A DNA stretch of 64,000 bases, from the NCBI RefSeq assembly GCF_041919735.1, contig NZ_JAYRTF010000016.1, positions 14,459 to 78,458 of the forward strand. Direction: 5' to 3'. The position numbers and the translations under genes are program-made. This document shows positions 3,001 through 39,069 of the stretch, piece by piece (position 1 is the first letter of the stretch; each line of letters starts with the position of its first letter). This stretch comes from Acinetobacter sp. GTDB lineage: Bacteria > Pseudomonadota > Gammaproteobacteria > Pseudomonadales > Moraxellaceae. The notes under the pieces were generated by a model. That model ran no database searches and had not been told where the DNA came from. It worked only from the letters and a program-made list of their open reading frames with translations.

Positions 3001-4412
3001 GATTGTGCCGGCACCGCCGCCGCTTCGATATCCTGCTGTACAAATGCAGTGAGTTCATGCAGCAGCTTTTGCGCTTCCGCACCCAGCACAACACGCTGGC
3101 CTGCAGCCAATGTATCGAATAAATGAATAAATTCTTGATGCGCTTGGGCAAACAGCTCAAAAGCATAGTTCAGATTCAGCAGTTCCGGTTTTTCCACCAG
3201 CACGTCATAGCCGCACTTTAATTCTTGGGTGAAATCATGAATGCCTGCAGATGCGCGGTTGTCCGTATGCTCTAAAAGCAGCTGCGACTGTGCGCTTAAA
3301 GTACGCAGATAATCGGGGAATTCCGCTTGCGCGCGGCTGTCAAATTCAAATTCGGCATCCAGCAGCTGATCAATATTCAACTCAATCAGCTTAGACACCA
3401 AGCCTTGCGGATTTAAATCTTCGCTGATTTCTTCAGCGGCAAAGCCGTAATCATTCCAAGCGGTATTGAATGTCTCATAAATTGCATCCAGCTGATGGCT
3501 GGCGCCCTGACGCATGGTCAGCAGATAATCCCGCACAAATTCAGCATACTGAATCAGCAAAGCGGTTTCTTTAGAAGTCGAAACAATGTCTTCTTGCAGC
3601 AGCGTCTTGAACAGATTCTCAACTTTTGAGCTGGCCTCAAAAATCTGATCAATTTGCGCCATGGATGAACTGCCGCGCAAAGTATGCAGCGCGCGGATCA
3701 GGCCATTGTAATCTTGATGTTTTTCATTTTCAGTTTTCAGAAACTGATCAATGGCATGCAGATGCTCTTCTGCTTCTTCAATAAAGATCGCCACTGTTTC
3801 TTCAATATAGCTGTCATCACTTGCAGCCGGAGCCTCAGTGCCTGCCGGATCAGCAATGGCCGCTTCTGCGCCTGCCGGTTCATCAGCCAATTCCAGACCG
3901 GTTACAGCCTGTTCTGAATTCAGCGTATCCGCCAGCGCCAGCAATTCCTGCAATGCAGGTTCAGGGCTTAAGCCTTGCTGCAGCTGCTGTCCAAGCATCA
4001 CCAGCGGACGCAAATCAACATCCAGCTCTGCCACTGTTTTAAACCGCGGGTAAAGTTTATATTGATAAACATTTAAAACCGTTTGGGCAAATTTCTGGAT
4101 CACTGGCGTCAGCGTAATGCTGCCTGAAAGGACACGGTTCAGCGTGTCTTCTACAACCCATGCCGTTTCACCGGCAGATTTAGCCCCCACCATGCGGCCA
4201 GACCCTTTTAAGGTATGGAAATGACGGCGAATCGTAGTCAGCGTTTCTTGATTGTTCGGTTCTTCTAGCCAACCCGTAAATAAAGAATTTAATTCAGCAA
4301 AGATCTCTTCTATTTCTTCAACAAAAATTTCTAAAATTTCTGCATCTTGATCTAGATAGCTATCTTCCGGAAGCGTAGTCGTTTCTACTAAATTTTTTAA
4401 TATTTCTTTCAT
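1..4412 (-). CDS. chpA: ChpA, CheA-like hybrid histidine kinase/response regulator of the Pil-Chp system (3' end runs off the window start)
   Basis: Absent from the ORF track because the stop lies outside the window. Read by hand from ATG at 4412 (MKEILKNLVET). The same frame gives four Hpt motifs (HTLKG ~4216, HTLRG ~3685, HTLKG ~2758, HSIKG ~2152), the kinase motif HMLRNAIDHG (~1200) and the receiver end GVTHYMGKPFQE at the edge. Lies downstream of pilJ. Confidence 0.93.
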   Translation of the reverse strand, partial: MKEILKNLVETTTLPEDSYLDQDAEILEIFVEEIEEIFAELNSLFTGWLEEPNNQETLTTIRRHFHTLKGSGRMVGAKSAGETAWVVEDTLNRVLSGSITLTPVIQKFAQTVLNVYQYKLYPRFKTVAELDVDLRPLVMLGQQLQQGLSPEPALQELLALADTLNSEQAVTGLELADEPAGAEAAIADPAGTEAPAASDDSYIEETVAIFIEEAEEHLHAIDQFLKTENEKHQDYNGLIRALHTLRGSSSMAQIDQIFEASSKVENLFKTLLQEDIVSTSKETALLIQYAEFVRDYLLTMRQGASHQLDAIYETFNTAWNDYGFAAEEISEDLNPQGLVSKLIELNIDQLLDAEFEFDSRAQAEFPDYLRTLSAQSQLLLEHTDNRASAGIHDFTQELKCGYDVLVEKPELLNLNYAFELFAQAHQEFIHLFDTLAAGQRVVLGAEAQKLLHELTAFVQQDIEAAAVPAQSEPAAIILAASAGVDYAQLSQRIASARTQNAEQANTDFDEDLLAIFLEEAEELLAGIDADLSTWTQDQSNIGALNNLMRYLHTLKGGANMISASHIGLIAHELESVYERIIRNQIAVNPVLIRIIRLVQDDVSDRIQTIRDQGVDYPGDAVIDIVQNIQSIAGGSAIAAAAETAPVSEAAQAEAVEEELSVPAEEAKIAEERKPEAVEGAAEDALGEVAAAEQPIAEPASSALSDEDAALRSVVEETFLEEAEEVLIHTEALLTQWFEQRSDRSILLQLQRAAHSIKGGARMVENEPVAAIAYQLETTFEQFAVHHFSSNAYDNLLQTTVSWLKQAIFEKDYSNFDSIKFSLDSIEFSNVTAQLPDNFSRSAQTPAVRGFEFIQGDGVEPPSMQGEWTDTLKSDNSNEMIRISADLVEKMIDLAGENSINRSRIEMDLGQLGNTLNEMELAIKRLADQLRRMDGELESQIIAKHGSDHSRYADFDPLEMDQYSSLNQLSKSLAESASDLVDFKSTLSEKIRDTEGLLLQQSRIQAEIQESLMRTRLVPFSRMLPRLQRIVRQTSSTLNRPAELIVQNTEGELDRTILERLVTPFEHMLRNAIDHGLEDAGDRLEQNKPAVGNIVLNISRQGTDVLVSFSDDGKGIDEEKIKAKALSQGLIKANQVMEKQEILQLIFHPGFSTAQSVTQISGRGVGLDVVQSEIKALGGHVMVESELGKGTTFTIRVPTTVAVSDALMVKAGDQQFAISLAQIDRIVRIAPSALEDYFSSRADTFKIDNTHYKLRYLSEFVSNQPAPRLGQVAHSLPVLLIKGNSGQTIALLVDQLIGSRAQIVVKPIGQQFSNVGAIAGATILGDGQVCLILDGQNIARQIQTTQRVSNNKDQRDLSRHGNARRLVMIVDDSVTVRKVTSRLLERQGFDVVTAKDGVDAMEQLENVRPDLMLLDIEMPRMDGFEVTNLVRHHDIHQDLPIIMITSRTGEKHRERAFSLGVTHYMGKPFQE

Positions 4413-33423: not shown

Positions 33424-33855
33424 GAGTAACCTCTAAATTGAGAGAATTTTAACAGCTGCGATTTTACGCTAAACAGATTTATTGCGATATTCCGTTTTTA
33501 AATTATTTTTCACGTTTTTTCTTTTGACTTTCTCACGCCCTAACCATCATTTATACGTTTCAATGCTAAGTCAAAGGACTGTTTCCCCCAAAAATGCATG
33601 GTAATAAGCTGAAAACTCCGCCATTAGAGCAATTGCTCAAAAGAATATATACCCCAATCACTTAAATAATATTCATTTTTAATAAAAGGACAAATGTGTA
33701 TTAAAAATAACCATCAAGCCCTTATTTTTAATAACTAAATATCATGCATTTCTGGCTTTTCAATTCATACATTTTTCATATATAAAAACACATACTATTT
33801 TTATGGTTTTATTTAATAAACCAGATTTTTCAACTTCTGAAGAATGAGGGTAAAG

Positions 33856-35475
33856 ATGCAAAATAACAAACGCGTAGCGCTAGATGCTCAACAATCGCAT
33901 CTTTGGATCATTGGCGGAGGCATTGCCGGCATGGCGGCCGCCGCATTTGCGATCCGTGATGCAAAAGTTCCGGCAAAAAATATCCATATCTTAGAAGAGC
34001 TCGATGTTTCGGGCGGCGCAATGGACGGCGGGCACACCCCTCATGCAGCGAAAGCTTGGGTGACACGCGGCGGGCGCATGCTGACCGATGAAACCTATCT
34101 ATGCCTTTGGGACTTATTCTCCAGCATCCCCTCTTTAGAAAATCCGGATATTTCAGTGCGTGAAGAATGCCGTGAATTTAATGACAAAGTGAAAACCCAT
34201 GCCAAGGCGCGTTTGATTGATGCTGAGCATGTGATTGCGGACGCCGAAAAACTTGGCCTGAACACCCTGCACCGCGCGCAAATGCTGCGCTTATTGGCGC
34301 TGAAAGAAGAAAAAATCGGCAGCCGCCGTATTGATGAGTTTTTTGATGAGGCATTTTTTGCAACCAATTTCTGGCGCATGTGGCGCACCACTTTTGCTTT
34401 TCAAAAATGGCACAGCGCCGCTGAGTTAAGGCGCTATTTCCTGCGTTTCATTCAGGAGCTGCCGCGGATTCATACCTTGGCAGGCGTAAAACGCACCAAG
34501 TACAATCAATATGATTCAATGATCCTGCCTTTGCAGCGCTGGCTGACAGCGCAAGGCGCCGATATTCGTTTTGGGCATTATGTTACAGATGTGGACTTCA
34601 TTACGAATGCTGAAACTCAAGAGCGCCAAGCCTCGCACCTGTATGTGCAGCTTCCTGAAGGTTCTGAGCAAATCAATCTGAAACCTCATGATTTGGCCAT
34701 TTTCACCTTAGGCTCCATTACCGCAGATACGCGTTATGGCGGCAATCATGACGTGCCCGCCCTCATCCGTGACCGGCAAGACCATGGCTGGACACTGTGG
34801 GAAACGTTGGCGCAAAAAGCCCCGGACTTTGGTCGTCCAATGAGCTTTTATGGCAATGTCGATGAACATAAGTGGGAATCTTTCACGCTGACCATGCAAG
34901 ATGATGCGCTGCTGAAACGCATGATTGACTATACCGGCAATGAGCCGGGCACAGGCGCACTGATGACATGGTATGAATCGGGCTGGCATCTCTCCATTGT
35001 GGTTCCAGCACAGCCGCATTTTGCTGACTTGCCGGCAGGCAGGCATACTTTATGGGGCTATGGTTTCCAAATCGACCAGATCGGCGATTATATTAAAAAG
35101 CCAATGTCTGCAGCCACAGGCCAAGAAATTTTAACGGAACTGGTGAAGCAGTTAGGTTTTGATGACCTTTTGGATCATGTTTTAGCCACGACTGAAGTCA
35201 CCACAGCCATGATGCCTTATGCCTCGGCCCTGTTTGCCTGCCGTAAGCCCGGTGACCGCCCGCAGGTGATTCCGAAAGGTTCGCAAAACTTTGCCTTCCT
35301 TGGACAATTTGTGGAAATTGAAGACGATGTGGTCTTTACCGTCGAATATTCCGTACGCGGCGCCATGCTGGCCATTTATGAATTCTTCGGGGTCGAGCGC
35401 GAAATCCCAGATATCTACAATGGCCTGCTGGACCCGAAAGTAGGCTTGAAAGCCTTGGAAACAGTGTTTCATTAA
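33856..35475 (+). CDS. ohyA: Oleate hydratase (MCRA family, FAD-dependent fatty-acid hydratase)
   Basis: GGGIAGM FAD motif, GGAMDG, RGGRM, FWRMWRTTFAF, YNQYDSMILPL, FTVEYSVR; RBS gaggg before ATG 33856. Confidence 0.9.
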   Translation: MQNNKRVALDAQQSHLWIIGGGIAGMAAAAFAIRDAKVPAKNIHILEELDVSGGAMDGGHTPHAAKAWVTRGGRMLTDETYLCLWDLFSSIPSLENPDISVREECREFNDKVKTHAKARLIDAEHVIADAEKLGLNTLHRAQMLRLLALKEEKIGSRRIDEFFDEAFFATNFWRMWRTTFAFQKWHSAAELRRYFLRFIQELPRIHTLAGVKRTKYNQYDSMILPLQRWLTAQGADIRFGHYVTDVDFITNAETQERQASHLYVQLPEGSEQINLKPHDLAIFTLGSITADTRYGGNHDVPALIRDRQDHGWTLWETLAQKAPDFGRPMSFYGNVDEHKWESFTLTMQDDALLKRMIDYTGNEPGTGALMTWYESGWHLSIVVPAQPHFADLPAGRHTLWGYGFQIDQIGDYIKKPMSAATGQEILTELVKQLGFDDLLDHVLATTEVTTAMMPYASALFACRKPGDRPQVIPKGSQNFAFLGQFVEIEDDVVFTVEYSVRGAMLAIYEFFGVEREIPDIYNGLLDPKVGLKALETVFH

Positions 35476-35497
35476 GGTTTTAATATTTTAATATCTG

Positions 35498-35538
35498 GCG
35501 GTAAAAGCATGCTTTGGTGCTTTTACCGCTTTTTTTTT
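35498..35538 (+). terminator. Intrinsic terminator after the oleate hydratase gene
   Basis: gcggtaaaagca-tgctttgg-tgcttttaccgc followed by T9. Confidence 0.88.
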
Positions 35539-35635
35539 GCAGCATGGACAGGCTGCAAATAACAAAACTGACTTGAAGCTTTGCCTGCACAAATGCAGTA
35601 TAAGAGCTGTCTCAAACTTAAAAAAAAAGCAACCT

Positions 35636-36091
35636 ATGAAACTTGCAGAAGCGCTCCTGCTGCGCAGTGATCTACAAACCAAGCTTGCATCATTGCAGCA
35701 GCGCATCAACAGCAATATCTTAGTGCAGGAAGGCGATGCGCCGAGTGAAGATCCAAATCAGCTGATTCAGGAAGCCACAGCAGTCAATACCGAACTGCAC
35801 GATTTGATTCAGCGCATCCATGCAACCAATGCACAGGCGCAGGCCGCCAGCGGTAAAAAGCTTTTAGCGCTGATTATTGAGCGGGACGCGCTCACCAGCC
35901 AGCACCGCATTTTACAGCAGGCCATTGACAGTTCACGGCGTGAAAACGGCCGCTACAGCTCCAGTGAAATCCGCTGGGTAAAAACCGTGGCGGTGGCGGA
36001 TCTGCAAAAACAGGCGGATGACATCAGCAAGCAATTGCGTCAGAATAATTTAGAAATTCAAGCTTCAAATTGGCAGATCGATTTAATTTAA
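35636..36091 (+). CDS. DIP1984-family coiled-coil protein (151 aa; start moved to MKLAEAL)
   Basis: N-terminus MKLAEALLLRSDLQ, VQEGDAPSEDP, YSSSEIRW and C-terminal LEIQASNWQIDL match the DIP1984 family pattern as I recall it. Confidence 0.85.
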   Translation: MKLAEALLLRSDLQTKLASLQQRINSNILVQEGDAPSEDPNQLIQEATAVNTELHDLIQRIHATNAQAQAASGKKLLALIIERDALTSQHRILQQAIDSSRRENGRYSSSEIRWVKTVAVADLQKQADDISKQLRQNNLEIQASNWQIDLI

Positions 36092-36381
36092 GCATTTGGA
36101 TAGCTCTGTTATACACCTAGATTGTTATATACCTCGATGGCTATGGCACCTATCCATTCCAGTTCGGGCATATTGGGCGAGTGCAAGGCCTTTTCCGCGT
36201 TTGTAAGGCTTTAATTCAACAAACGCTTGCAGGAAGTAAGGCGTCTGCTTCAAATTTTTACACCTCTGACGCAGCACCATGCATCTCTTACTTCTTACAG
36301 ATCACGCCGCACTACCATGCACTGACAATATGCCCACCCTATTGCACATTCAGTATTCAGCCCGCCGCTAAATGATGCGGC
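36092..36381 (+). ncRNA. Candidate structured non-coding RNA directly downstream of the DIP1984 gene
   Basis: Nested perfect helices 36097-36103/36150-36156, 36166-36175/36326-36335, 36180-36185/36318-36323, 36197-36204/36219-36226, 36233-36240/36287-36294 and 36241-36245/36268-36272; no credible ORF. Confidence 0.65.
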
Positions 36382-36409
36382 TTAAGCGGTACAGCTTCAT
36401 TTCAGCCGC

Positions 36410-36601
36410 TTAGTCATGCTGAATTTGATCGGCCAACACCGCTTCATTCTTAGGCATTTTATAGTCCTGATCAGATGCAGGCATGCCGCCGATAATCATT
36501 GTGCGCACTTCTGTTTTCGGCTTGTTTAAATCTTCCTTTGCATCACAGCCTGCCACGCTCAGCAGCAGGCACGCCATTATGGCTGCGGATAAAATTTTCA
36601 T
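36410..36601 (-). CDS. Small lipoprotein
   Basis: Lipobox VAGC after a hydrophobic signal; 63 aa. Confidence 0.7.
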   Translation of the reverse strand: MKILSAAIMACLLLSVAGCDAKEDLNKPKTEVRTMIIGGMPASDQDYKMPKNEAVLADQIQHD

Positions 36602-36801
36602 CCTATCCCCTCCATGTTTATCCTTATGCCTTTCAGCATAGCACTGCTGTATAAATTTTCACCTTAAATTTCGCATTTGGATATCCATTTCACGCGCAGC
36701 AGATCCTCATAAACCTTAATGCATATTTTTCAAAATCTTAAGATCAATTTAAAATTGCTTGATGGATAAATTTACAAAAAACCACAATGCAGAATATTTA
36801 C

Positions 36802-37416: not shown

Positions 37417-39069
37417 ATGGCTCAACCTCCCCGCCTGCTGGAGCCTGCACCGGACTGGACTGCAGATGAAAAACCGACGCTGCCCGGTTCTCCAGCGGCC
37501 ATCTCGCATCCGGCCTACAAGCGTTTCCTTTATTTTTTTATTGGCCTGTTTGTCGCGATTTCCGGCAGCCTGAGCAACGGCTTTATCACCGCCAATTTGC
37601 CTTTAATTCAGGGGGAATACGGCTTAACACCCTCCGAAGCCGCGTGGATTCCTGCCGCCTATGTCATGGCCAATGTCAGCGCCAATTTAATTTTATTCAA
37701 AGCGCGCCAGCAGTATGGCCTCAGGCTGTTTTCAGAAATCGGCCTTATGCTGTTTATTGCAGTGATGGTGCTGCATCTGTATGTGCACACCTTTGAAATG
37801 GCGGTATTTGTCCGCATCGTCAGCGGTCTGGTGGCCGCGCCGCTCAGCTCCTTGGGCATGTATTACATCATGCAGGCCTTCAGCCGGGTCAATTTCGGAC
37901 GCGGCTTATATTTGGCGCTGGGTTTCCAGCAATTGGGCATTCCGCTGGCATGGATCATGTCGCCTTATCTGGTCGATGTAAATGACTGGGGGCTGCTGTA
38001 TACCTTTGAACTGGGGCTGGCGCTGTGCTGCCTCGCTATGGTGGTGTCCTTAAAACTGCCGCGCAGCCTGCGGATTGCTGTGTTTGAATTTCAGGACATT
38101 TTCACCTTTGCACTGCTGGCGACCGGATTTGCCTTACTCTGCATTGTGCTGACCCAAGGCCCGATTCTGTGGTGGCTGAATGCCGACTGGCTGGCCTATC
38201 TGCTGATTGGCGCGCTGATCCTGATTACGGTCGGCCTGACCTATGAACATTACCGGGTCAATCCGCTGATCATTACCCGCTGGCTGGGCGCATCTTCAAC
38301 CATACGTTTTATTTTAGGCGCTTTTGCCATCCGCTTTGTCATGTCAGAACAAAGCTATGCGGCAGTGAATTTTCTGAAAACCATGGGCATGGGGCCCGAT
38401 CAGTTTGTGCATTTTTATCTGGTGATTTTGTTCGGTATTCTCAGCGGCACCCTTTTCAGCGCGCTGACTTTTTCCCGCGAAAAAGCCGTGTGGCATCTGC
38501 TGGGCGCTGTGGCGCTGATTTTTATCGCCTGCGGTCTGGATCATCATCTGACCAGTGATGTGCGCCCGGAAAATTTCTACCCGAGCCAGTTTTTAGTCGG
38601 CTTTGCCAGCGGCATGTTTATTGGCCCGCTATTGCTGACGGGGGTTGTCAATGCCCTGCAGCGCGGCCCCAATCACATGGTGACCTTTATTGTGCTGTTC
38701 TCCGCCAGCCAGACTTTTGGCGGCTTGATGGGGTCTGCATTTTTTTCCAGCTATCAGCAAATGCGCACTCAGCATTATCAAGCGGAGATTATTGCCGACC
38801 TGCCCGCCACCAACCCGCAAGTTGCACAGCGCCTGCAAATTTATGCGCAAAGCAGCCAGCGCTATACGCTTGATCCTGCACAGGAACAGAATCAGGCGCT
38901 GCGCAGCTTAAATCAGGCTGTCGCCAAAGAGGCGCAAGTCCGCGCCTATAACGATGTGATTTTTATGAATCAGCTGTTCGCCGTAGTGCTGCTGTTCTGG
39001 GGCTTATTTGTGATCGGCATGAATCAATACCGCAGCTACAGACAGCGCCTGCTGCCCAATTCCAGCTAG
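37417..39069 (+). CDS. MFS transporter (EmrB/DHA2-like, about 14 TM)
   Basis: 550 aa, many TM segments, large loop before the last TM; paired with a HlyD-family adaptor. Confidence 0.88.
   Translation: MAQPPRLLEPAPDWTADEKPTLPGSPAAISHPAYKRFLYFFIGLFVAISGSLSNGFITANLPLIQGEYGLTPSEAAWIPAAYVMANVSANLILFKARQQYGLRLFSEIGLMLFIAVMVLHLYVHTFEMAVFVRIVSGLVAAPLSSLGMYYIMQAFSRVNFGRGLYLALGFQQLGIPLAWIMSPYLVDVNDWGLLYTFELGLALCCLAMVVSLKLPRSLRIAVFEFQDIFTFALLATGFALLCIVLTQGPILWWLNADWLAYLLIGALILITVGLTYEHYRVNPLIITRWLGASSTIRFILGAFAIRFVMSEQSYAAVNFLKTMGMGPDQFVHFYLVILFGILSGTLFSALTFSREKAVWHLLGAVALIFIACGLDHHLTSDVRPENFYPSQFLVGFASGMFIGPLLLTGVVNALQRGPNHMVTFIVLFSASQTFGGLMGSAFFSSYQQMRTQHYQAEIIADLPATNPQVAQRLQIYAQSSQRYTLDPAQEQNQALRSLNQAVAKEAQVRAYNDVIFMNQLFAVVLLFWGLFVIGMNQYRSYRQRLLPNSS

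Follow-up and report, generated by a model that had tools for sequence, protein, structure and literature searches.

The locus described here lies in a 64-kb stretch of DNA (64,000 nucleotides, termed the window) from an Acinetobacter sp., and consists of a gene of the DIP1984/DUF6847 family and, immediately downstream on the same strand, a structured RNA. Across Moraxellaceae, eight plasmid loci of four phyla and metagenomes, this RNA is strictly coupled to that one protein family; its fold is conserved by compensatory substitutions; and it is co-transcribed with the gene from the + strand, reaching a higher level than the messenger RNA (mRNA). The gene and the parts of the RNA, numbered from the first letter of the window, are as follows:

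35636-36091, + strand: gene of the DIP1984/DUF6847 family, encoding a four-helix protein of 151 aa
36097-36156, + strand: hairpin right after the stop codon, with a perfect stem (36097-36103/36150-36156)
36161-36341, + strand: conserved core of the structured RNA (~180 nt), matched by covariance model R1 (152.2 bits, E 1e-41)
36166-36175 with 36326-36335, + strand: closing stem P1, GGGCATATTG/CAATATGCCC (7/10 pairs compensatory, 99.7% of cells paired)
36176-36179 opposite 36324-36325, + strand: asymmetric internal loop, 5' GGCG/3' GA (invariant or near-invariant columns)
36180-36185 with 36318-36323, + strand: stem P2, AGTGCA/TGCACT (4/6 pairs compensatory, 98.1% paired)
36187-36226, + strand: pseudoknot 1 (P3 and P4), H-type
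36187-36192 with 36205-36210, + strand: P3, GGCCTT/AAGGCT (4/6 pairs compensatory)
36197-36204 with 36219-36226, + strand: P4, GCGTTTGT/ACAAACGC (a duplex in 47/47 distinct strand pairs)
36233-36272, + strand: pseudoknot 2 (Pa and P5), H-type, in which the Pa loop supplies the 5' strand of P5
36233-36238 with 36246-36251, + strand: hairpin Pa, GAAGTA/TGCTTC (covarying: GAAGCA/TGCTTC, GAGATA/TATCTC, AAGC/GCTT)
36241-36245 with 36268-36272, + strand: P5, GCGTC/GACGC (5/5 pairs covarying or conserved in the short class)
36273-36317, + strand: 3' half, with AGCAC, then 7-nt NNNNNAC repeats and an invariant ACC just before the 3' strand of P2

R1 finds a single match in the window, namely this core. 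The internal loop between P1 and P2 reads RGCG/GA in other phyla, the exceptions being GG in the Enterococcus faecium copy and AA in a viral-contig copy (L102). A canonical kink-turn at this loop was considered and rejected: the covarying register would pair A20 with U and G21 with C, leaving no tandem G-A pairs. Within pseudoknot 1 the 3' strand of P3 lies inside the P4 loop without a linker, and the remaining linker (36211-36218) is A-rich (GAAAATAAT) in most relatives; 98% of the P4 strand pairs have z < -1, and the centre of the helix often holds a bulged A or a conserved A-A mismatch. The 3' half is probably single-stranded, conserved pairing being absent from it. Its heptads in the window (GCAGCAC CATGCAT CTCTTAC TTCTTAC AGATCAC GCCGCAC) reflect a general periodicity: successive AC dinucleotides are spaced by 7 nt in 30.7% of cases, as against 6.5 +/- 1.0% in shuffles, and this periodicity is visible in other phyla too.

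A first-pass annotation, made from the sequence of the window, had proposed a noncoding RNA of ~290 nt built from six helices. All six are present as perfect Watson-Crick inverted repeats exactly where it had placed them, but the RNA is shorter than it supposed: sequence beyond 36343 fails to align in relatives, and the conserved core spans ~180 nt. As an RNA fold the helices fared unequally. P1, P2, P4 and P5 covary, whereas GAAGTAAG/CTTACTTC (36233-36240/36287-36294) is not kept in relatives, its place being taken by the local hairpin Pa, which is pseudoknotted with P5; P3, pseudoknotted with P4, is an addition to the earlier list. The region 36097-36156, which had been called a '5' domain', does correspond to a short hairpin of differing sequence (e.g., TGGATAGCCATCCA, GAACTTCGGTTC) in most relatives, but not in all (none was found after the stop codon in the A. 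johnsonii group), and its loop is a lineage-specific 46-nt insertion (36104-36149). This insertion, which contains two 16-nt direct repeats, TGTTATACACCTAGAT and TGTTATATACCTCGAT (repeat family D13), is single-copy within the window and missing from the closest relatives.

Single-sequence thermodynamics cannot carry the claim of a conserved fold, because the minimum free energy z-score of the window sequence is not significant on either strand (-1.65 on the + strand, -1.48 on the - strand); a perfect stem of at least 10 bp, moreover, occurs in 7/200 shuffles (3.5%). Comparison across relatives does carry it. A protein profile identified 80 Moraxellaceae genome loci (Acinetobacter, Alkanindiges, Psychrobacter and Moraxella), and the element stands right after the DIP1984 stop codon, on the same strand, in all 80. 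The R1 matches at these loci (113-179 bits) lie on the + strand just after the gene, one per locus save in tandem cases, and by blastn the segment 36152-36343 is 72-94% identical in 24 Acinetobacter species, again directly after the stop codon. Covariation, computed on 87 distinct Moraxellaceae sequences, agrees with the predicted pairing: 93.6% of cells are paired, as against 27-40% when the partners are slid, and compensatory changes occur at 24/33 pairs, the observed values being reached in 0/500 shuffles. The covarying structure that the first-pass annotation had expected downstream of homologues is thus found there. G-U pairs are common at four positions (in 31, 74, 29 and 22 sequences), and because these would be A-C mismatches on the - strand, it is the + strand that is the functional RNA; a reading on the - strand is excluded both by these many G-U pairs and by stranded reads on the + strand. 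As a side observation, seven loci of the A. bereziniae/guillouiae clade (L038, L041, L047, L052, L058, L061 and L062) have two RNA copies in tandem after one DIP1984 gene, and the tandem copies (at locus positions of about 3503-3705 and 3725-3950) are different structural subtypes.

Other identities for the element were tried and set aside. A small protein-coding gene is rejected, in that the open reading frames (ORFs) 36181-36375 (+) and 36125-36280 (-) are not preserved but are interrupted by 1-2-nt indels and altered by substitutions in paired columns. Neither an intrinsic terminator nor a simple 3' hairpin fits, since a terminator scan of 36092-36409 found no terminator-like sites and the element folds through several helices, long-range pairs among them. 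ARAGORN called the element neither a tRNA nor a tmRNA. Rfam 15, a search of which the first-pass annotation had recommended, holds no matching family: it gave none for the window element at E <= 10, nor for 25 related loci at E <= 5-10.

The RNA also exists in a larger and widespread form, of which the stand-alone window copy is a reduced version; the larger form is seen after DIP1984 genes in Alphaproteobacteria, Firmicutes, Cyanobacteria, Actinobacteria and metagenomes; more than 170 instances across the family were fetched. At each of eight distant plasmid loci (from Paracoccus, E. faecium, Picosynechococcus, Psychrobacter, two mycobacteria and two Streptomyces-like actinobacteria) the best R1 match lies on the gene's strand, 15-65 nt past the stop codon (E 1.8e-29 to 0.19), and 22 of the 23 R1 matches at E <= 0.3 in metagenomes (55 loci) are likewise placed after the gene. 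From 5' to 3' the larger form consists of an outer stem P0, a D-loop-like AGYYGGTA, P1, RGCG, P2 and pseudoknot 1; then of Pa/P5 with a T-arm (GGGTTCGAnTCCC) in the P5 loop, followed by CCCAGCA and the AC heptads; and finally of ACC, the 3' strand of P2, GA, the 3' strand of P1, an invariant G-box GAGGGYGGGNNNGGGG and the 3' strand of P0. Motifs were counted in the 71 metagenomic loci with enough downstream sequence. The G-box occurs in 65/71 loci and in 0/71 on the opposite strand (e.g., L130:1371-1390, L089:3659-3675, L087:3665-3682), the 5' loop motif in 59/71 (opposite strand, 3), the T-arm motif in 55/71 (opposite strand, 6) and the D-loop-like motif in 47/71; 55 loci have both G-box and 5' loop motif, in the right order and 127-206 nt apart. 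Judged from its sequence, the G-box could be a G-quadruplex or a protein-binding site.

The larger form also corroborates the fold. Thirty diverse members, with pairwise identities all under 80%, were aligned by MAFFT without regard to structure; in this alignment 95.5% of cells are paired, as against 26-40% with partners slid, compensatory changes occur at 23/29 pairs, and both pseudoknots, including P3 and P4, are supported. Across phyla all ten pairs of P1 and all six of P2 show compensatory changes, and the larger-form equivalents of Pa and P5 are 88% and 95% paired, again with compensatory changes. Rfam matches at larger-form loci are confined to flanking tRNA genes, and ARAGORN called none of the larger-form members a tRNA. 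From the window copy the G-box, outer stem and T-arm are missing; short-class relatives have CCCACCC after P1 instead.

The element is expressed. Wastewater metatranscriptome contigs that match the window have a depth of 62-141 over 36146-36333, as against 9-17 in the flanks, and break near the ends of the element. Two stranded RNA-seq runs from an A. pittii-like organism were mapped on a related locus (L040); because the first mates map to the - strand, the RNA is on the + strand. Coverage there is unbroken from the DIP1984 gene into the element, where depth rises from about 30 (the 3' end of the gene) to 80-92 before falling to about 7 in rtcA, so that the element accumulates 3-10-fold above its flanks and the coding region. 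Co-transcription with the gene, combined with this higher depth, therefore indicates that the RNA, once made along with the gene, builds up as a more stable species; the stranded reads bear out the transcription that the first-pass annotation had anticipated. In plasmid-bearing strains the gene and the RNA lie on one transcript-sized RNA-seq contig, with a depth of up to 3180 in one run. At L040, 3' ends pile up at 3653 and 3681, each right after 'AC' (...GUCAC^G and ...CUGAC^A), which hints at cleavage or protection in register with the heptads. Circularisation by RtcB was considered and rejected, in that the two L040 runs contain no back-joined reads at a depth of ~90. The accessible text of the A. 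baumannii primary-transcriptome paper makes no mention of rtc.

These profiles bear on a first alternative, namely that the element acts in cis, as a stabiliser, terminator, attenuator or processing site in the 3' untranslated region (UTR) or intergenic space that sets the ratio of DIP1984 to rtcA, possibly as an autoregulatory site for DIP1984 on its own mRNA. Such an element would always be transcribed with the gene, as this one is; an independent promoter is not evident between the stop codon and the RNA; read depth drops about 10-fold at the 3' end, just before rtcA; and in E. faecium a strong terminator follows the RNA. Yet a stabiliser or terminator needs far less than an RNA of 180-250 nt whose two pseudoknots covary and which has tRNA-like modules and invariant loops. 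The RNA is, besides, kept where no co-oriented gene lies downstream (as on plasmids and in the window, where the next gene is convergent), some species have two tandem copies, and accumulation reaches 3-10 times that of the coding region. A purely cis-acting role is accordingly judged unlikely. Held with moderate confidence, by contrast, is the reading that 36161-36341 (+ strand), probably together with the preceding hairpin, is a structured RNA and the dedicated partner of DIP1984 in a ribonucleoprotein (RNP) devoted to the response to RNA or tRNA damage. What this partner protein is, and which genes accompany the pair, is considered next.

The ORF 35636-36091 matches PF20935 (165 bits; curated cut-off 27) and NF038048 (174.9 bits; cut-off 70), exceeding both cut-offs and confirming the family to which the first-pass annotation had assigned it. 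The founding structure of the family, PDB 3KDQ (DIP1984 of C. diphtheriae), is a homologue (profile E 1.5e-29 over residues 1-150); this crystal structure has been available since 2009, with no function assigned to DIP1984/DUF6847. An AlphaFold2 model of the window protein (m40e766e56a7e, from 35636-36088) is a compact four-helix bundle with a pLDDT of 84, for which the sole significant Foldseek match is 3KDQ, with a TM score of 0.49 and an rmsd of 17 A; so poor a superposition of a model suggests that the crystal may show a different conformation, such as an extended or domain-swapped oligomer. Ten residues are invariant across phyla: R10, Q31, G33, N65, R83, E111, R135, Q142, N145 and W146. 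The 'septicolysin' of A. baumannii small plasmids (e.g., L085, NC_022565.1) belongs to the same DIP1984 family, in keeping with what the first-pass annotation said of Acinetobacter plasmid homologues; A. baumannii plasmid papers list it as a 'septicolysin' virulence factor by annotation alone. In a literature search DIP1984 appeared only in plasmid annotation, and nothing was found for DUF6847 or joining 'septicolysin' with RtcB.

In most Acinetobacter the gene order is rtcB - DUF7684 - DIP1984 - RNA - rtcA, to which A. baumannii adds, upstream, a divergent rtcR and an RNase Z-like gene. One such locus (L082, NZ_CP098797.1) reads rtcR (divergent) - RNase Z-like - rtcB - hypothetical - DIP1984 - RNA - rtcA and then continues into housekeeping genes; the record is a plasmid by label, with chromosomal-looking content. 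Elsewhere the company differs: at 17 of 80 metagenomic loci the pair is embedded in a tRNA array, typically Thr-Asn-Lys-Ile-Ile-Gln (among them L109, L115, L119, L122, L128, L138, L152, L155 and L159), and 11 copies are in viral contigs, two of which (L098 and L102) have flanking tRNAs as well. The pair stands alone on 8.7-kb plasmids of A. baumannii and on an A. lwoffii plasmid, where gene and RNA make up a unit of about 0.9 kb that is presumably one of the dif modules of Acinetobacter plasmids. Among plasmid records, the RNA occurs in 348 and the protein in 373, of which 344 are from Acinetobacter and 1 from Aeromonas, the rest being from other genera; the RNA (200 nt) is unannotated in every plasmid match listed. 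A blastn search of plasmids with the window spacer gave no match because the plasmid copies are too diverged; the covariance model and a plasmid-type query found them.

The window likewise keeps the gene-RNA pair alone, with no rtc or tRNA genes in its 64 kb. Two further features bound or adjoin the pair:

35497-35538, + strand: intrinsic terminator of the upstream oleate hydratase gene (14-bp stem 35497-35530, then a T run)
36364-36381, no strand assigned: hairpin GCCGC-N8-GCGGC between the RNA and the lipoprotein gene, outside the conserved element

Upstream lies the oleate hydratase ORF (33844-35475), and its strong terminator delimits the DIP1984-RNA unit on the 5' side; the first-pass annotation had already noted this terminator, as well as the lack of one separating the gene from the RNA. 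Downstream is an Acinetobacter lipoprotein gene (36410-36601, - strand), convergent with the pair and separated from the DIP1984 stop codon by a spacer of 318 nt. The hairpin at 36364-36381 is present as first annotated, though it is no part of the conserved RNA; a second hairpin, AAGCGG-N16-CCGCTT (36384-36410), overlaps the stop codon of the lipoprotein gene. Neither hairpin has a T run, and together they may terminate both convergent transcripts. Further neighbours are a TetR regulator and a long ORF (37417-39069), which is read as a putative transporter from its hydrophobic sequence. Thus the pair is kept together while its neighbours change, from rtc operon to tRNA array to small plasmid to the stand-alone window copy, and the genetics (80/80, 8/8 and 65/71 loci) strongly support the first-pass inference of a self-contained unit in which gene and RNA act as a pair.

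Carriage on small plasmids raises a second alternative: a type III-like toxin-antitoxin or abortive-infection module, in which DIP1984 would be the toxin and the repeat-containing RNA its neutraliser. Like ToxI/ToxN, the system is compact, often plasmid-borne and made of a protein and an RNA, with pseudoknots, short repeats and more RNA than mRNA; more than 340 Acinetobacter plasmids carry it as a mobile, self-contained unit of two parts, and 11 viral-contig copies are known. In its anatomy, however, it departs from that model. The RNA is downstream of the protein gene here but upstream in ToxIN, and no terminator separates the two. The repeats are 7-nt motifs within one large fold rather than ~36-nt processed tandem units, and a repeat search over 35400-36700 found no tandem array of longer units, just short families of 2-3 copies. 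DIP1984 lacks a ToxN-like nuclease signature: no nuclease domain matches it in Pfam even at E <= 10, no PADLOC defence model matches the pair, and a HEPN-like RNase built on R83-x6-H90 was rejected, R83 being invariant while H90 varies (H/Q/Y/R) across phyla, with Pfam and Foldseek support absent. In many chromosomes, finally, the pair sits inside an RtcR-controlled repair operon or a tRNA array. A toxin-antitoxin function is rated improbable, and an RNP is favoured over it because of this repair-operon and tRNA-array context and because of the features, described below, that the RNA has in common with Y RNAs.

Bacterial Y RNAs (YrlA/YrlB, RF02553), found in rsr-yrlA-yrlB-rtcB-rtcA operons, are likewise noncoding RNAs encoded beside a presumed partner gene, on the same strand, and inside or beside an RtcR-controlled rtcBA operon. 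In both cases the 5' and 3' ends pair as a closing stem with a 5'-proximal motif: GGCGAG/GGCGAAUG here, GNCGAA(N)G in YrlA (PMC4201824). To the latter motif, taken as GNCGAA(N0-1)G, the window sequence GGCGAGUG fits at 5 of 6 fixed positions and the GGCGAAUG of Psychrobacter and Moraxella exactly, other phyla having RGCGAR. Most members outside Moraxellaceae also share with Y RNAs a tRNA-like module, that is, the T-arm GGTTCRA and the D-loop-like AGYYGGTA; Moraxellaceae copies, that of the window included, have no such T-arm/D-arm domain. Against these likenesses stand several differences. Instead of a TROVE/vWA Ro60 ring, the neighbouring gene encodes a DUF6847 protein of four helices and 150 aa; Y RNAs measure 80-130 nt but this RNA 180-250 nt; and Y RNAs have not been described with two pseudoknots, with AC heptads or with a G-box, which this RNA has (the G-box in its larger form). 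Y RNAs are recognised in part by a same-strand Ro60/Rsr gene within about 4 kb (PMC4201824); the window has no such neighbour, and the constant neighbour across loci is DIP1984. Finally, the YrlA model RF02553 matched neither the window element at E <= 10 nor 25 related loci at E <= 5-10, although the same scan found a true YrlA in A. bereziniae (L062:35-156, + strand; 56.8 bits, E 2.7e-10, the gathering score of the family being 69). That YrlA lies upstream of rtcB in an operon that also holds two copies of the DIP1984-associated RNA, and because the operon has both, the two RNAs are distinct; an rsr gene is probably just beyond the examined flank of this locus. Lacking a model match and a Ro60 neighbour, and differing in size and in its extra pseudoknots, heptads and G-box, the RNA is therefore a new family rather than a Y RNA, though by analogy it may work like one. 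It appears to be undescribed in Rfam 15 and in the searchable literature.

A mechanism along these lines would begin with release of the RNA from the DIP1984 transcript as a stable species. DIP1984 would then bind it through the GGCG/GA loop, or with one protomer per AC heptad, or both, and the resulting RNP, analogous to that of Ro60 and Y RNA, would act in the response to RNA or tRNA damage: either as a scaffold or adaptor for RtcB/RtcA-type repair, or as a tRNA-like decoy or ribotoxin sensor.

The same operon context admits a third alternative, in which the RNA would serve as a sensor or sacrificial substrate: ribotoxins or a nuclease of the operon would cut its tRNA-like part or its AC repeats, and the fragments, ending in 2',3'-cyclic phosphates, would feed signalling or repair by RtcR/RtcB. 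Cyclic-phosphate-ended tRNA fragments are reportedly the RtcR-activating signal in Salmonella (Hughes et al. 2020), which would accord with such a role. The rtcR-controlled operons in which the pair occurs beside an RNase Z-like gene point the same way, as do the two 3' end piles directly after 'AC' (L040:3653 and L040:3681). Regulation of the rtc operon by damaged tRNAs is described in PMC7790460. Those piles, however, amount to just two end positions in two runs; joints and back-splice reads are not seen; the pair persists in genomes and on plasmids that lack rtc genes; and strict linkage to DIP1984 goes unexplained unless the protein is itself a nuclease or a protector. A sacrificial role, too, is considered improbable.

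Two further classes of RNA invite comparison with a dedicated partner of DIP1984. GOLLD and ROOL are large structured RNAs linked to tRNA arrays. The present RNA resembles them in its association with such arrays (17/80 metagenomic loci) and in its T-loop- and D-loop-like elements; it differs in being much smaller, unmatched in Rfam and tied strictly to one protein family, and the window copy has lost the tRNA-like parts. It also resembles the 3'-UTR-derived small RNAs (sRNAs) of Gram-negative bacteria in being transcribed with the upstream gene and accumulating separately at a higher level, but its conservation is structural, extends across phyla and follows a protein family rather than a regulon. 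That it is an ordinary trans-acting, base-pairing sRNA arising from a 3' UTR and functionally unrelated to DIP1984 is very improbable: it is co-transcribed and accumulates, and PMC6182133 reports sRNAs at gene 3' ends in A. baumannii, yet it is linked to one protein family across at least four phyla, conserves structure rather than a seed sequence, and is atypical in its size and pseudoknots.

Several observations nevertheless weigh against a DIP1984-RNA particle that responds to RNA damage. The evidence for pairing of protein and RNA is genetic throughout. No RNA-binding domain is recognisable in DIP1984 by Pfam at E <= 10, the protein is near-neutral to acidic (pI 5.4-6.8), and in the Foldseek search no solved structure but 3KDQ resembles it. 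The repair or tRNA role derives from associations in relatives, the window itself having neither rtc nor tRNA genes, and the window copy is without the T-arm, G-box and outer stem. At the level of reads, the RNA data comprise two stranded runs of a related species, supplemented by assembler contigs; coverage at L040 suggests that the RNA ends lie not at P1 but within P2 and the heptad region; and a cis-acting terminator or processing site would also produce the sharp drop in coverage after the element.

With these points in mind, a broader proposition is put forward tentatively, with a little less than even confidence: that DIP1984 and its RNA constitute a new class of RNP distributed across phyla, a second, Ro60-independent 'Y-RNA-like' system, in which the AC repeats of a tRNA-mimicking, double-pseudoknot RNA serve as ribotoxin decoys or as loading sites for an oligomeric helical protein, and which, in conjunction with RtcB/RtcA and tRNA arrays, guards or repairs tRNAs against anticodon nucleases.

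For the orphan DIP1984/DUF6847 family, a structured RNA partner is the first concrete functional lead. The RNA itself is a new, large RNA family with two pseudoknots that has gone unannotated in hundreds of clinical plasmid records, and its unusual architecture (the AC heptads and, in the larger form, the T-arm and G-box) is of structural interest. More generally, its place in RtcR-controlled rtcB/rtcA operons and in tRNA arrays bears on the substrates of bacterial RNA repair, and may offer insight into how accessory RNPs, such as that of Ro60 and Y RNA, contribute to such repair.

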